DNA of 32,000 nt, taken from Candidatus Baldrarchaeota archaeon. Its GTDB lineage: Archaea > Asgardarchaeota > Baldrarchaeia > Baldrarchaeales > DXJG01. The stretch covers positions 343,103-375,102 of the forward strand of contig DXJG01000002.1 of NCBI GenBank assembly GCA_019056805.1. Direction: 5' to 3'. A program made the translations under genes and the position numbers. This document shows positions 9,700-28,150 of the stretch, piece by piece; position 1 is the first letter of the stretch; each line of letters opens with the position of its first letter. The notes beneath the pieces are model-generated. The model was given only the letters and a program-made list of their open reading frames with translations, was not told the DNA's origin and did no database searches.

Positions 9700-10167
9700 T
9701 TGGTTAGTTTGTCTGAAAAATATGTTGAAGTAAAAATATTTGAAGTTGTAAGCTTAGTAACGCCCTTTGGCCCAGTACCCGCACTACTTTTGGAAGATAA
9801 TCAAGAAAGAATTCTTCCTGTTGTTGTTGGCAGAGAAGTCGCAAATTCCATTAAAGCGTTTATCGAGGGCAGAGAAGAGGAACCAACTGATATATGGACG
9901 CTCGCATACAATATTCTTTCCAGGTATGAAGGGGAAGTAAAACAAGCAATGATATACGATCTAAAAGAAAAAAGATTTCTGGCAAAAATGATACTAAATA
10001 TCAAAGGAGAAGACGTAGAATTCAAAGGAAGACCAAGCGATACAATATCCTTTGCAATTAGAGCAAATAAACCCATATTAGTAGCTGAAAGAATAATGAA
10101 TGAAGTTTCTATCCCAAAGAGCCAATTAAAATCCGAGCCAGAACGTGAAGAACAACCTCAATCCTAA
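9700..10167 (+). CDS. Bifunctional nuclease domain protein (DUF151/BFN), copy 1
   Basis: PALLLED...LPVVVG, F.A..IL, RPSDTISFAIRANKPILV (compare the family consensus D.RPSDAIALA). Confidence 0.8.
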   Translation: MVSLSEKYVEVKIFEVVSLVTPFGPVPALLLEDNQERILPVVVGREVANSIKAFIEGREEEPTDIWTLAYNILSRYEGEVKQAMIYDLKEKRFLAKMILNIKGEDVEFKGRPSDTISFAIRANKPILVAERIMNEVSIPKSQLKSEPEREEQPQS

Positions 10168-22264: not shown

Positions 22265-22594
22265 ATGAGGTTGCCCGATTTCATAAAATTATGTAATTCA
22301 TTAGGACTCGAATTGTCTGAGAGAAGCTTGAGCTTAATAAAAGAACTTGAAAAAGCTAAGTATAGAACAAAAGTTCCCATAACATTCTATTCTAAGCCTA
22401 GGACTATGAAAAGTGGAGGACGTTGGCGACTTCTTCTTAAGGCTGAGGTTGCCAATGTAGCCCTTTCGGTCTCTCGTCCAGAAATAATAGTTGAGGTAGA
22501 TGGGTCTCCGGTAAAAATTAGAAAAATAGCGATAGAGGATGTGAGAAGAGAAGTAAGAAATGAAATAGAAAAATGGAAGCAGTTTATGGTTTAA
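22265..22594 (+). CDS. Hypothetical protein (109 aa)
   Basis: Fills the gap between the helical gene and the metG stop; G-rich SD and TATA-like element upstream. Confidence 0.62.
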   Translation: MRLPDFIKLCNSLGLELSERSLSLIKELEKAKYRTKVPITFYSKPRTMKSGGRWRLLLKAEVANVALSVSRPEIIVEVDGSPVKIRKIAIEDVRREVRNEIEKWKQFMV

Positions 22595-22610: not shown

Positions 22611-24266
22611 TCAAGTCCATTTTTCATTAATAGAGATTTTTTTGAAGAGCGGACTTGGTTTCTTAATTAAATGTCCCGAAGGAATTAGTAGTTCTTTTGC
22701 TGTAGTCCAATTCTCCTTATCGTGTACTGAACCGTCAAGGTTTAACATTTCCCAGATTTTCTCAGAGCTAAAGGGTATAAATGGTTCCATTAATATGGCT
22801 AAGCAACGAGTTAATTGACAGCATAAGTTTAGTGTGGTTTCAGCAATTTCTTTTTCGCTTTTCATTTTGTGCCACGGGGCTTTATCGTTGAGGTACTTGT
22901 TTCCTTTCCTTGCTAAATTCATAGCTTCACTAAGTGCATCCTTAAATTTAAACTTCTCTAAAAGTTCAGCAACGGTATCTGGAGTTCTCTGAATACTTGC
23001 TATAAGTTCTTTGTCAAGCTCGTCAAGTTCATGTCTTTCAGGAACTTTTCCATCAAACTGTTTATAGATAAATACAAGGGTTCTATGCACAAAGTTACCT
23101 AAGATATCAACTAATTCGTTATTGATTCTCGCTTGGAAATCGTCCCAAGTAAAGCTTGAATCTTTTGTCTCCGGTCTTATAGATATCAGATAATATCTCC
23201 AATAATCAACTGGAAATTTTTCTAACGCTTCATCAGCCCAGACTCCCCATCTTCTACTCTTAGAAAACGGTTTTCCACAAAAGAGTAAGAATTCTGTGGA
23301 AGCAACGTTCCAAGGCAAAATATATTTTTCTTCACTTGCCATGAGTAGTGCTGGCAAAATTAATACGTGGAACGGTATGTTATCTTTGGCTATAAAGTAC
23401 ACACTCTTTGTCTGAGGATCAAACCAATATTTTTTCCACTTATCGGGTTTTCCTACATTTTTTGCCCATTCTATTGTTGCAGATATATACCCTAGAACAG
23501 CTTCCATCCAAACATAAATCGTCTTTTTCTCAGCACCTGGAAATGGTGCTGATATCCCCCACTCATTGTCCCTAGTAAGTGATCTAGGTTTTAACCCCTC
23601 ATTTAATAGGTTTAAGCTAAAGTTTCTAGCATTTTCTGGTAATTGCTTATTACTCTCTACATATTTCTTTAATTCCTCTTCAAATTTCGATAAGTCAAAA
23701 AACCAATGAGTAGTCTTTTTAATCTCTGGAGTAGAACCACATATCGCGCAACGCGGAGATTCTAATTCTATAGGATCTAAAAGTCTCCCGCAATTTTCAC
23801 ATTGGTCCCCTCTAGCATTTTCATAATTGCAATAAGGACAAACACCTTCAACAAACCTATCCGGTAAAAATCTTTGACATTTAGGGCAGTAGAGCATTTC
23901 AATTTCTTTTGAAAATATGTAGCCATTTTCATAGACTTTCCTATAAAAGTTTTGAACAAATTCCTTGTGAACAGGACTTTCTGTTCGTGTATAATTGTCA
24001 AAAGATATTCCCCATTCATCAAAAATCTTCTTAACTTTCTGATGCATCTCATCAGTGAGTTCACGTGGCGACATCCCTCTTTTTATCGCTTCAACTTCAA
24101 TTGGAGTACCATGTTCGTCAGAACCAGAGACAAACACTACTTCATCTCCTCTAAGCCTAAGATATCTTGCAAAAACGTCCGCAGATAATACTGAACCTAT
24201 CATGGTTCCTAAATGAGGTACATAGTTTATATATGGCCAAGCTGAACATACAAGCCATCTACGCAT
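22611..24266 (-). CDS. metG: Methionyl-tRNA synthetase, copy A (SAWPY/HLGT/AKDN type)
   Basis: SAWPYINYVPHLGT, SDEHG, four CxxC knuckle motifs, YVWMEA, AKDNIPFH, FSKS, GNFVHR, KAPW. ATG 24266 has GGAGGT 7 nt upstream; the ORF track uses GTG 24284. Confidence 0.96.
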   Translation of the reverse strand: MRRWLVCSAWPYINYVPHLGTMIGSVLSADVFARYLRLRGDEVVFVSGSDEHGTPIEVEAIKRGMSPRELTDEMHQKVKKIFDEWGISFDNYTRTESPVHKEFVQNFYRKVYENGYIFSKEIEMLYCPKCQRFLPDRFVEGVCPYCNYENARGDQCENCGRLLDPIELESPRCAICGSTPEIKKTTHWFFDLSKFEEELKKYVESNKQLPENARNFSLNLLNEGLKPRSLTRDNEWGISAPFPGAEKKTIYVWMEAVLGYISATIEWAKNVGKPDKWKKYWFDPQTKSVYFIAKDNIPFHVLILPALLMASEEKYILPWNVASTEFLLFCGKPFSKSRRWGVWADEALEKFPVDYWRYYLISIRPETKDSSFTWDDFQARINNELVDILGNFVHRTLVFIYKQFDGKVPERHELDELDKELIASIQRTPDTVAELLEKFKFKDALSEAMNLARKGNKYLNDKAPWHKMKSEKEIAETTLNLCCQLTRCLAILMEPFIPFSSEKIWEMLNLDGSVHDKENWTTAKELLIPSGHLIKKPSPLFKKISINEKWT

Positions 24267-24312
24267 CTTTCTTACCTCCGACACGTAAAAATCTATTTAT
24301 CAGCGTGTTATT

Positions 24313-25986
24313 TTACTTGTTTTCAGTTTTCATTGATTCTAATATTTCTTCTATTTTTTCATCCGCAATTTTCTGAAATATTGGTTCAGGTTTTTTAATT
24401 AAATGACCTGGTGGAATTTCAACTTCAGTTAAATAACTCCAGCTAAATTTTTCTATATTTAGATATTCCAAAACTTTTTTGGCTGAGGAGGGTATAAAGG
24501 GAACTAGCAATATAGCTATAGTTTTTACAAGTTGAGCAGCAACAAACAATGTTGTCTTAGCATCATTCACATTGCTTTTAACCGTTTTCCAAGGTTCTTT
24601 GAGATTTAAATATTTATTTCCTTCTCTAGCCAAATTTATAATGTTTTCAAGGGCTAATTTTAACCTATATGTTCCCATAAGTTTTTCTATCTTTTCTATA
24701 TCTCTCTTGATAAGTTCTATGATTCTTTTGTCTTCTTCTTTATATTCAGATGGTTCTGGAACTTTACCTTGAAAATATCTGTAAATAAAGGTTAAAACTC
24801 GATGTATAAAATTTCCAATGATCCCAACGAGATCGTTATTAATTCTATCTTTAAATTCTTTCCAACTCCAGTCGGTATCATCTAAAGACAGAGGAGAAGC
24901 AAGTATTAAATAAAATCTTGCGTAATCTGCAGGGAAATGTTTAAGGAAGTCTTCAACCGCAATATACCATCCTCTACTCTTTGAAAACTTCTTTTTTTCT
25001 AATGTGAGAAATCCTCGAGTTGGTATAGCTGAAGGAAGGTTAAAGCCTAGGTTTGTACCCTTAAGCATTGCAGGCCAAAACAGATAGTGGTGGTAAATGA
25101 TATCCTTTCCGATATGGTGAATAATTTTTGTTTCTGGATTCTTCCACCATCTTTCCCAATTATCGCCGTGATCTTTACACCATTTCATGGTGGAGGCAAT
25201 ATATCCAATTGGAGCATCAAACCACACATAAACCTTTTTTCCCTTAGAGTCTTCATAGGGAAGTTCAAATCCCCAGTAGTCTTTTTCTCTTGTGATGTCC
25301 CAGTCTTTTAGTCCCTCCTCTATCCATCTAAGTACGTAATTCACAACTTGGGATTGCATTTCCTTATTGTTTTTTAACCAGTTTTTAAGGAAATCTGAAA
25401 ACGCTGAAAGTTTAAAAATGAAATGAGAACTTTCTTTAGGAATAGGAGTAGAGCCGCACAATGCGCATTTAGGGTCTAAAATTTCTCCAAATTCAAACGT
25501 TGTACCACACTTCTCACAATAATCGCTATACTGATCTTGGGCTCCACATCTCGGACATGTACCCTTTACATAACGGTCTGGTAGATAACGTTGACAGTTG
25601 GGACAATAATGCAGTTTCACATAGTCTTTGTATATGTAGCCATTTTCTCTCAGCGATTTCAAAAATAAATGAGTTAACTCTTCATTTTCGGGGCTATGTG
25701 TTCTGTAAAAAACGTCGAATTCGATGTCTAGTGATTTGAAAATTTTCTTGTCAAGTTCATGGTAATTCTTTACGAATTCTTCTACGTTTTTTCCAGCTTT
25801 TTCGGCTGCGAGCTGAATTGGGGTACCATGTTCATCTGTAGCACAAATATAGAGAGTTTCAACACCTTTTAAACGGTAAAAACGAGCAAGAACATCAGCA
25901 GGCAAATAGGTACTTTTCATATGACCTAGATGAGGTATTCCATTAGCATAGGGTAAAGCTGCTGTTATTAACACCCTTTTGAACAT
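24313..25986 (-). CDS. metG: Methionyl-tRNA synthetase, copy B (ALPY/HLGH/GKDI type)
   Basis: AALPYANGIPHLGH, TDEHG, four CxxC, YVWFDAPIGY, GKDIIYHH, KFSKS, GNFIHR, KEPW; GGAGG SD. Confidence 0.96.
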   Translation of the reverse strand: MFKRVLITAALPYANGIPHLGHMKSTYLPADVLARFYRLKGVETLYICATDEHGTPIQLAAEKAGKNVEEFVKNYHELDKKIFKSLDIEFDVFYRTHSPENEELTHLFLKSLRENGYIYKDYVKLHYCPNCQRYLPDRYVKGTCPRCGAQDQYSDYCEKCGTTFEFGEILDPKCALCGSTPIPKESSHFIFKLSAFSDFLKNWLKNNKEMQSQVVNYVLRWIEEGLKDWDITREKDYWGFELPYEDSKGKKVYVWFDAPIGYIASTMKWCKDHGDNWERWWKNPETKIIHHIGKDIIYHHYLFWPAMLKGTNLGFNLPSAIPTRGFLTLEKKKFSKSRGWYIAVEDFLKHFPADYARFYLILASPLSLDDTDWSWKEFKDRINNDLVGIIGNFIHRVLTFIYRYFQGKVPEPSEYKEEDKRIIELIKRDIEKIEKLMGTYRLKLALENIINLAREGNKYLNLKEPWKTVKSNVNDAKTTLFVAAQLVKTIAILLVPFIPSSAKKVLEYLNIEKFSWSYLTEVEIPPGHLIKKPEPIFQKIADEKIEEILESMKTENK

Positions 25987-26059
25987 TATCCCTCCAAACG
26001 TAAATCCATTAGTAGAATTTGTTTCCTTCTTAAAAATTTAACTGTTAGTAGATGAAAGA

Positions 26060-26872
26060 TTAAACAGTTATCTCTGCTAAAGATTTAAGAATAAAGTTAG
26101 GCTTGATCTTACTCCTTTTGATGTCATTTAGGTTGGTAGCACCTGTGAGGACAAGAAGAGATTTACATCCTACTCTCTTAGCAGCTAAAATGTCTGTTTC
26201 TATTCTATCTCCGATAACCAAAACATTTTCAGGCTCAACGTTTAGTATCCTTAAAGCAAAATTCATGATTTCAACATTAGGTTTTCCAACAATTATCTCC
26301 GGTTTCGTGCCGGTTGCTGTTTCTAGAAAAGAAACAATAGCCCCTGCACCGGGCAACAGTCCTTTTTCTGTCGGAATATTAGGATCAGCATTTGTTGCGA
26401 TGAATTTCGCACCATTAAGAATTGCATACGCCCCTGCTGCCAGTTTATCATATGTTAATTGTCTATCAAGACCGACAACAACGGCATCTACTTTAGAACT
26501 CCAGGAATTGTCTTCAGAGATAATGGTAAATCCAAAGTTTCTCATTTCTTCTTTAAGACCATTTTCACCTATAATTAGAATTTTGAGGTTGATCCCGTAT
26601 TTCCTTTTAAGATATTGTCCTGTTGCGTAACCACTAGTTATGACCTCGTTTACATTGGTTTTTATTCCGAAGGCATTTAGCTTTCTGACGTAATCTTTCC
26701 TTGTTTTAGTAGAGTTGTTTGTAAGAAATATTATTTTTTTATTTTTCTTTCTGAGAATTTCTATAACTTTGTCTACTTCCTCTATTTTTGTTTCTCCTCT
26801 CCAAATTACTCCATCGCAATCAAAAATGAATCCGTCAAATTTTTGAAATTCTTTTTTAAGTTCCATGTCCAT
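26060..26872 (-). CDS. HAD-superfamily subfamily IIA phosphatase (NagD/PGP-like)
   Basis: FDCDGVIW (motif I), LTNNS (II), GKP (III), IGDRIETDI (IV). Confidence 0.93.
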   Translation of the reverse strand: MDMELKKEFQKFDGFIFDCDGVIWRGETKIEEVDKVIEILRKKNKKIIFLTNNSTKTRKDYVRKLNAFGIKTNVNEVITSGYATGQYLKRKYGINLKILIIGENGLKEEMRNFGFTIISEDNSWSSKVDAVVVGLDRQLTYDKLAAGAYAILNGAKFIATNADPNIPTEKGLLPGAGAIVSFLETATGTKPEIIVGKPNVEIMNFALRILNVEPENVLVIGDRIETDILAAKRVGCKSLLVLTGATNLNDIKRSKIKPNFILKSLAEITV

Positions 26873-27043: not shown

Positions 27044-28150
27044 ATGACTGTTCTCATGGACATGGATCCCGAACTTGCAAGAAGAAAACTAAAGAGAATA
27101 ATTGAAAAACTTAAAAAAATTAAAGGTAGGCATTCTTCTCTTACAACTGTGTATATTCCCCCAGATAAGAGCTTAGTTGATGTAATAAATTTCCTAAGAC
27201 AGGAATACATGACCGCCAGCAACATTAAAGACAAAACAAACAGAAAGATGGTTCAAGATAACATTTTAACTATGATAAATGAAATTCAAAAACTTAAAAA
27301 AATACCCGAGAATGGTGTTGCCCTTTTTTACGGATATTATGAGACTTCCCCTGGAAAATTTGAACAAGTAAAAGAGATAGTTGTTCCTCCATTTCCAATT
27401 AAAAATTTCATTTATATTTGTGGTAAGGACTTTGACCTTAAACCACTAGAAGAAATGACTACTCCCAAAAACATCATTGTTGTTGTTTTAATGGAAGCAG
27501 GAAACTACGTTATAGGAATAATTAGAGGTAAAGATATAGAGGTTCTAAAGGAAGGAGAATATTATGTCATTGGAAAGACAAGGCGTGGAGGTCAAAGTGC
27601 AAGACGATATGAACGCATTAGAGAAGAACAAATTCATAACTTCTATAAACATCTTGCTAAAGAGGTAAACGACCTTCTTTTACCGGAGTTAGAAAATATC
27701 GACGCTATCGTATTTGGTGGAAACACAATTAGGGTACAGGAATTTTTGGAGGAAAACCTTTTAGATTACCGATTAAGAGACAAAATCGTGACAAATATAA
27801 TTAGTGTACCAATAATTGATGGCGATGGAATATTTTTAGCTGCAAAAGAAGTTGCAGAAATAGTAAAAGAGTCGGAAATACATCGAGAAAAAAGACTCTG
27901 GGAAGAATTCAAAACTAGACTTATGAAAGACGATCCACTCGTAACCTATGGTAAAAACGAAGTCATAGAATGTCTTAAGCAAGGTAGAGTAGAAACCATC
28001 CTTATATCAGAAGCATTAGAAGATATTTTAGACGAAGTTATAGATCTAGCTGAAAAATACGGTACGAAAGTAGAAATTTTTGGAAAAAACACAGAATCTG
28101 GAAAAGAACTACTTGGCTTCGGCGGCATAGCTGCCATACTAAGATGGTAA
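27044..28150 (+). CDS. prf1: Peptide chain release factor aRF1
   Basis: SLTTVYIPP, TASNIKD, PENGVALF, YICGKDF (YxCxxxF), RGGQSARRYER, LLGFGGIAAILRW; GGGTGA SD. Confidence 0.95.
   Translation: MTVLMDMDPELARRKLKRIIEKLKKIKGRHSSLTTVYIPPDKSLVDVINFLRQEYMTASNIKDKTNRKMVQDNILTMINEIQKLKKIPENGVALFYGYYETSPGKFEQVKEIVVPPFPIKNFIYICGKDFDLKPLEEMTTPKNIIVVVLMEAGNYVIGIIRGKDIEVLKEGEYYVIGKTRRGGQSARRYERIREEQIHNFYKHLAKEVNDLLLPELENIDAIVFGGNTIRVQEFLEENLLDYRLRDKIVTNIISVPIIDGDGIFLAAKEVAEIVKESEIHREKRLWEEFKTRLMKDDPLVTYGKNEVIECLKQGRVETILISEALEDILDEVIDLAEKYGTKVEIFGKNTESGKELLGFGGIAAILRW

Follow-up and report, generated by a model that had tools for sequence, protein, structure and literature searches.

The 32,000-nt stretch of Candidatus Baldrarchaeota archaeon DNA analysed here (hereafter the window; assembly GCA_019056805.1, contig DXJG01000002.1, positions 343,103–375,102) carries two complete genes for methionyl-tRNA synthetase (MetRS) in tandem on the minus strand. 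The first gene of the pair, copy B (24313..25986, 557 aa), is followed by copy A (22611..24266, 551 aa counted from ATG 24266). The two products are 43% identical over 547 aa. Our analysis indicates that the pair is probably a stable intermediate of gene displacement, with xenologous enzymes that would both be active, canonical MetRS. On this reading, A and B would descend from two archaeal branches of MetRS that parted long ago and of which a genome normally has just one. In Baldrarchaeia one branch would have joined the other through lateral transfer. The usual loss of one copy would then have failed in this genus, which would have kept the B–A tandem through the radiation of at least four species, with the sister family retaining B alone.

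Open reading frames (ORFs), Pfam and NCBIfam searches confirm the original prediction of two intact, co-oriented genes 46 nt apart, each with its own Shine–Dalgarno (SD) sequence and the expected MetRS motifs, and neither with a C-terminal appendix. Pfam assigns to both copies PF09334, the catalytic domain of MetRS (E-values of 7e-163 and 7e-150), and PF19303, its anticodon-binding domain (7e-20 and 2e-22), and places no C-terminal tRNA_bind domain (PF01588) in A or in B. Scores against the NCBIfam model NF001100 are 644.2 bits for A and 683.5 bits for B, above the MetRS equivalog cut-off of 587 bits. The motifs of copy A are HLGT, SDEHG, YVWMEAVLGY, KDNIPFH, PFSKS, GNFVHR and PW; those of copy B are HLGH, TDEHG, YVWFDAPIGY, GKDIIYHH, KFSKS, GNFIHR and PW. 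Both therefore hold the class I signatures HIGH and KMSKS and the GNF.HR and PW elements of anticodon binding, and at the level of sequence four CxxC motifs in each define a connective peptide with two zinc knuckles. The HIGH motif of A ends in Thr, which is the consensus of the whole A subtype (the human enzyme has HLGN). The first KMSKS lysine of A is replaced by Pro (GKPFSKS) only in this genus, and the second, catalytic lysine is kept. Alignment of B to the E. coli enzyme (1P7P) shows that all of the methionine-pocket residues Y15, D52, W253, A256, Y260 and H301 are present. The pocket of A likewise retains Y, D, W, A, Y and H; the residue corresponding to P257 is Val, as it is across the A sub-lineage.

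The division of MetRS into the major types MetRS1 and MetRS2 has been described previously (PMC8165550, PMC9071491). The best solved match for both copies is Pyrococcus abyssi MetRS (1RQG; 582 bits with A, 500 bits with B), and one-knuckle MetRS1 enzymes score only 130–215 bits with either; for these reasons A and B are assigned to MetRS2. The alignment to the P. abyssi enzyme runs end to end through the catalytic, connective-peptide and anticodon-binding parts, and includes the four CxxC motifs and the KDNIPFH string found in A. The sequence features identify both copies as class Ia synthetases of the two-knuckle MetRS2 form, short and without the C-terminal tRNA-binding domain. The strings HLGT, YVW.EAVLGY and KDNIPFH are the consensus of ~115 A-type sequences, and HLGH, YVWFDAPIGY and GKDI.YHH that of ~120 B-type sequences. 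As judged from these alignments, the diagnostic strings mark sub-lineages of MetRS2 and not separate major types. The earlier description of the copies as 'different types' thus holds at the sub-type level and fails at the level of the major type.

The affinities assigned to the two copies in the original prediction were partly borne out. Copy A leans to human cytosolic MetRS (5GL7; 450 bits, versus 361 bits for B), a relation read from scores against the Protein Data Bank, with no eukaryotic sequences in our trees. It shares HLG[T/N], KDN[I/V]PFH and FSKS with the human enzyme and lacks the human GST or WHEP appendages. Copy B leans to E. coli MetRS (1QQT, 1P7P; 400 bits, versus 282 bits for A), with which it has HLGH, YVW.DAPIGY and GKDI.Y.H in common; full-length E. 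coli MetRS ends in a C-terminal dimerisation domain that both copies lack. The 'euryarchaeal' label for B is not supported, as the only solved euryarchaeal MetRS, that of P. abyssi, carries KDNIPFH and scores higher with A than with B. Nor is the 'actinobacterial' label for A, given that Mycobacterium smegmatis MetRS (2X1L) scores 149 bits with A and 202 bits with B.

The P. abyssi enzyme differs from A and B in its length of 722 aa, which includes a C-terminal Trbp111-like domain. Both Baldrarchaeia copies end at ~550 aa, and this domain is found as a separate gene encoding a stand-alone 109-aa Trbp111/EMAP-like protein (contig C9 of the source genome, G000:C9:319622-319900, minus strand), located on the same contig ~23 kb before the window start. 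The protein is 47–57% identical to the C-termini of long MetRS from both sub-lineages, and we regard it as a putative tRNA-binding domain acting in trans for the MetRS cores. Crenarchaeota have a split MetRS composed of a core enzyme and a stand-alone Trbp111-like 'beta' protein. The arrangement here resembles that system in its short core and in a tRNA-binding OB domain encoded elsewhere, and departs from it in that two different cores would share one stand-alone domain, a putative feature read from the genes.

Names carried by near-identical proteins put the genus in the Asgard class Baldrarchaeia, of which five species are present in our collection: four species-level genomes of the genus (G000–G003, of which G000 is the source genome) and one genome of a sister family (G004). 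Tandem retention in relatives, which the original prediction had proposed to survey, extends to all four species of the genus and not to the sister-family genome; the same flanking genes accompany the pair in each of G000–G003. A chimeric contig or a mixed bin joining the MetRS genes of two organisms deserves attention, as the source genome is a 1.92-Mb metagenome-assembled genome (MAG) in 18 contigs (91% complete, 3.6% contamination) and as its only MetRS genes, A and B, differ in their nearest relatives. An 853-nt metagenome contig from a different study, however, spans 23791–24643 at 100% identity with more than 300 nt on each side, and so crosses the junction at 24267–24312, the interval where the earlier reader had suggested looking for a false join. 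In addition to the four-species tandem, A and B carry consecutive NCBI protein accessions in five or more deposited MAGs under the names Candidatus Baldrarchaeia or Baldrarchaeota, synteny of the flanks extends across genomes, and the GC content is even across the region. These observations rule out an artefact of assembly or binning, whose probability we consider negligible.

The two-MetRS tandem is rare in archaea. Two MetRS genes occur in 4 of 400 Asgard genomes, all within one of 85 genera. None of 121 genomes of a second archaeal phylum, the one to which a Thalassarchaeaceae genome belongs, has two whole MetRS; in the two cases where a double hit arose, the parts proved to be halves of one broken gene. 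These counts cover Asgard archaea and the one second phylum; both sub-lineages occur also in Thermoproteota and DPANN. A scan of the contig collection with B gave a single close archaeal locus, which belongs to the G002 genome; the remaining matches were distant bacterial MetRS. Our searches of the literature, directed at paired MetRS in Asgard and other archaea and at Baldrarchaeia synthetases, brought up no relevant description.

Phylogenetic trees were calculated with FastTree (296 sequences) and with IQ-TREE under the LG+C20 posterior mean site frequency model (106 sequences), and the groupings described here agree in both. The B copies form a clade (support 100/100) with the lone MetRS of the sister-family genome, and this clade is sister (93/95) to a set of Thermofilum- and Thermoprotei-labelled sequences together with Jord-, Frey- and Atabeyarchaeia-like ones. 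The A copies are sister (95/82) to Asgardarchaeia MetRS and fall in a different major clade, where they lie with Thermoprotei and Bathyarchaeia sequences next to a clade of Loki- and Hel-type Asgard enzymes. Further Asgard families (Odin-like f3, f7, f14 and f17) branch elsewhere. On these trees Asgard MetRS form a mosaic in which at least two deep branches are represented, a genome as a rule having a single sub-lineage. Of the phylogeny proposed with the original prediction, our trees cover the two archaeal sub-lineages. A recent tandem duplication is rejected: the copies are 43% identical to each other and each 64–70% identical to other lineages, in different major clades. The earlier suggestion of an old pair of separate descent is upheld on the same grounds.

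Synteny identifies the sister-family MetRS as the positional orthologue of B: like B, it lies between HAD and eRF1-like genes to one side and a tubulin module to the other, the flanking genes being the same in both families. The slot occupied in the genus by A and an adjacent orphan ORF contains, in the sister family (locus L122, 6181-9076, on G004:C84), genes for an XPB-like helicase (539 aa) and a Bax1-like protein (427 aa). No remnant of A was found in this genome, which is 96% complete, and a tblastn search of the source genome found no close homologue of XPB or Bax1 (only a 23% helicase hit on C6). The arrangement fits either gain of A in the ancestor of the genus or loss of A in the sister-family line. 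We lean towards loss because the data do not reject a clade uniting every Asgard A-type sequence (approximately unbiased (AU) test, p-AU 0.37) and because the identities of the copies parallel those of RpoB, as vertical descent of A would predict: A is 64–66% identical to Asgardarchaeia MetRS and B ~70% identical within the class, where the RpoB equivalents are 76% and 78%. The identity of B to every other lineage is 46–53%. The AU test strongly rejected a single clade of Asgard B-type sequences (p ~1e-71), a result that is not relied on, since that group was named post hoc and depends on unreliable labels such as 'Thermoprotei archaeon'. We give an even chance to a history in which A represents the older Asgard MetRS and B was acquired by the ancestor of the class, displacing A in the sister family. 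Addition of A in the ancestor of the genus is possible at a lower probability, and an ancient origin of both copies is distinctly unlikely.

Both copies are under strong purifying selection. Pairwise ratios of nonsynonymous to synonymous substitution (dN/dS) are 0.023–0.080 for A and 0.043–0.075 for B, including those of the unsaturated pair G001–G003 (dS ~0.3); synonymous sites are saturated in the other pairs of the genus (dS 1.5–2.5). With columns called near-invariant when at least 95% invariant, A keeps 153 of 155 such columns of its sub-lineage and B 88 of 90, and of those near-invariant across both sub-lineages A keeps 67 of 67 and B 65 of 67. Of the changes in A that are specific to the genus, only two stand out, KFSKS to PFSKS and GKDN to AKDN. 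A degenerate or decaying copy is rejected, and neither copy resembles a re-purposed paralog, as motifs, anticodon-binding domain and near-invariant residues are kept in both. The idea that the pair is kept together, put forward with the original prediction, agrees with a tandem found in four of four species and with dN/dS of 0.02–0.08 for both copies.

These values bear on a slow neutral replacement, in which A and B would be equivalent enzymes whose displacement is not yet complete. The single copy of the sister family is in keeping with this explanation, as are the patchy distribution of MetRS sub-lineages over the Asgard classes and the repeated replacements that it implies. A redundant gene, however, would be expected to decay in at least one species, whereas both copies persist in four species at saturated dS of 1.5–2.5 with dN/dS below 0.1. 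As a rival explanation of the pair we therefore rate slow replacement as rather improbable.

Several points weigh against a displacement intermediate with two active canonical enzymes. In A, Pro replaces the first KMSKS lysine and Ala the Gly before KDN, and a reduced activity of this copy is conceivable from its sequence. B has evolved ~1.5-fold faster than A on the branch of the source genome (dN of 0.11–0.125 versus 0.05–0.08), and the sequences do not indicate how A and B differ in function. The inferred direction of transfer depends on a test that failed to reject and on approximate ratios of distances. Names in the MAG protein databases are often unreliable ('Odinarchaeota' is used for members of this genus), and clade labels such as 'Thermoprotei' are therefore soft.

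The layout of the genes suggests simultaneous production of the two enzymes. The B–A spacer (24267..24312, minus strand) comprises the 46 nt between the B stop codon (TAA, 24315–24313) and the A start. It contains a run of five T residues (24291–24287) within an AT-rich stretch and an SD-like GGAGGT (24279–24274) located 7 nt before the copy A ATG; the ATG of copy B is preceded by GGAGGG (25995–25990). The copy A ORF extends to 24284 if a GTG start is used (22611..24284, minus strand), and it is ATG 24266 that fits the alignment to the N-termini of P. abyssi and human MetRS. In one species, G001, the codon aligned with this ATG is ACG (locus L123, ~10000–10020), and the SD-like stretch contains an in-frame GTG 9 nt upstream of it; this species would use another start codon, or the sequence would contain an error. 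Spacer length (46–50 nt), T-run and SD are kept in all four species of the genus. Such conservation fits co-transcription of B and A, and would also be compatible with termination after B or with an internal promoter. The tight tandem is probably an operon.

Such long co-retention, with purifying selection this strong, implies that A and B are no longer interchangeable. Two canonical cores would share three CAU tRNAs and one trans-encoded tRNA-binding domain. The reason for keeping both may be that they are isozymes differing in robustness to a condition or a natural inhibitor, to which we assign somewhat less than an even chance. A quantitative split of tRNA substrates between initiator and elongator would be an unlikely reason, and dosage or a slow neutral transition, which we place next in order, would be unlikely to the same degree. 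Other reasons, such as a heteromer or a non-translational role, are improbable.

Our motif scan finds three CAU tRNAs in the genome, one of initiator type (C1:6778-6879; A1:U72, GGG/CCC anticodon stem) and two of elongator type (C1:14701-14775 and C17:67335-67445), which is the standard set; the scan revealed no extra CAU tRNA, and a fourth is possible in a genome that is 91% complete. Infernal identified 27 tRNAs. ARAGORN gave 11–31 calls depending on settings and is incomplete because most tRNA genes here carry introns (G000:C17:67335-67445 and other loci), some of them at two positions. Run without intron search, ARAGORN yields the 11 tRNAs. Its calls of 'tRNA-SeC(tca)' (C9:448264-448366) and 'tRNA-Stop(tta)' (C9:551-662) may be intron-induced miscalls.

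The tRNA set is relevant to a division of labour in which A and B would differ in preference for initiator and elongator, or in which one would discriminate against unmodified tRNA-Ile2(CAU), both being essential. Such a division would accord with the co-oriented tandem and its conserved 46–50-nt spacer and SD, with two anticodon-binding domains that are intact yet different in sequence, and with the presence of one initiator-type and two elongator-type CAU tRNAs. Either sub-lineage, however, is the sole MetRS of hundreds of archaea and thus able to charge both tRNAs, and the standard three CAU tRNAs were found with none extra. MetRS identity elements, moreover, are the CAU anticodon and A73, which are common to initiator and elongator, and we know of no organism that splits initiator and elongator charging between two MetRS. 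We consider this explanation fairly unlikely. Even less probable is the bolder form, in which A and B have divided the methionine job between initiation and elongation, or act as one unit with the shared stand-alone tRNA-binding protein.

Alternatively, the second enzyme could serve as insurance, one copy withstanding a natural inhibitor of MetRS or, for example, zinc limitation, oxidation or temperature stress, in the manner of bacterial second synthetases. The pairs of dissimilar synthetases that have been studied are mostly of this kind. The methionine pocket differs between the copies, with WMEAVLGY and KDNIPFH in A versus WFDAPIGY and KDIIYHH in B. On the other side, no biosynthetic or transporter cluster is adjacent (the neighbours are instead the HAD hydrolase, the eRF1-like factor and the tubulin module), the pair is fixed in the genus and not strain-variable, and the operon-like layout argues against separate regulation, an internal promoter still being possible. 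As a rival account of the pair, insurance is possible and somewhat doubtful. The narrower candidate of a resistance gene within a biosynthetic cluster is rejected: no cluster or mobile element is linked to the pair, which is present in four of four species.

Pairs of synthetases for one amino acid are known from other organisms. In Gram-positive bacteria, pairs of MetRS are of different major types, are unlinked and strain-variable, and are explained by inhibitors. The Baldrarchaeia pair is like these Gram-positive cases, a MetRS1 with an acquired MetRS2, in placing two complete, differently derived synthetases in one genome. Unlike them, A and B are both MetRS2, adjacent, fixed in the genus and archaeal, with no sign of an inhibitor. 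Among archaea, Methanosarcina barkeri has two SerRS and Sulfolobus two LeuRS. Class I and class II LysRS coexist in Methanosarcinaceae, among other pairs (PMC7373986). In these LysRS, SerRS and LeuRS pairs, as with A and B, two non-identical enzymes for the same amino acid coexist stably in a restricted lineage; the pairs differ in serving other amino acids and in having genes that are not in tandem. Across more than 2,500 genomes, one survey found that prokaryotes commonly carry synthetase paralogs in a single genome and that these derive mostly from horizontal gene transfer and not from duplication; resistance to natural inhibitors is documented there as a role of such paralogs, including horizontally acquired ones of MetRS (PMC5388404).

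The surroundings of the pair hold the HAD hydrolase, the eRF1-like factor, the tubulin module and the orphan ORF, and among the neighbouring genes examined no biosynthetic, transporter or mobile-element genes flank it. The HAD-family hydrolase gene lies upstream of B in the same orientation and ends at 26060; the intervening region (25987..26059, minus strand) contains an AT-rich, TATA-like stretch and the GGAGGG that precedes B. Beyond it, window positions 27044–28150 (plus strand) encode a 368-aa protein with eRF1 domains 1–3, a putative aRF1 or Pelota, whose gene is conserved beside the MetRS locus in both Baldrarchaeia families. On the other side of the pair, the 109-aa orphan ORF (22265..22594, plus strand) is convergent with A and conserved at 85–86% among the species of the genus. 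Searches of Pfam and Atlas with it gave no match, and the MetRS loci retrieved for the sister family (L122) and for the nearest A-type relative (L125) showed no counterpart. The orphan ORF and copy A may belong to the same insertion or rearrangement.

Two further observations concern other genes of translation and transcription. The source genome has two EF-2-like genes, with open frames of 744 and 736 aa (C9:309269-311500 and C9:41555-43762). In two Atabeyarchaeia-like genomes the RpoB gene (G015:C1:520385-524878 and G035:C34:1582-6075) is matched in two pieces ~1.6 kb apart within a single frame of ~1650 aa, a pattern that suggests an intein in RpoB of these genomes.

The tandem is probably one more case of a known process, half-way gene replacement, and no new kind of system. 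Lateral replacement of synthetases is very frequent and its two-gene intermediate is rarely seen; this genus shows that intermediate fixed, in tandem and under selection. Two natural enzymes that are 43% identical and face the same three CAU tRNAs in the same cytoplasm provide a clean system for asking why two synthetases persist. If A and B did divide initiation from elongation, this would be the first organism with dedicated MetRS for each, in a lineage near the root of eukaryotes. The mosaic of Asgard MetRS also matters for the use of MetRS as a marker of the archaeal ancestry of the eukaryotic cytosolic enzyme.

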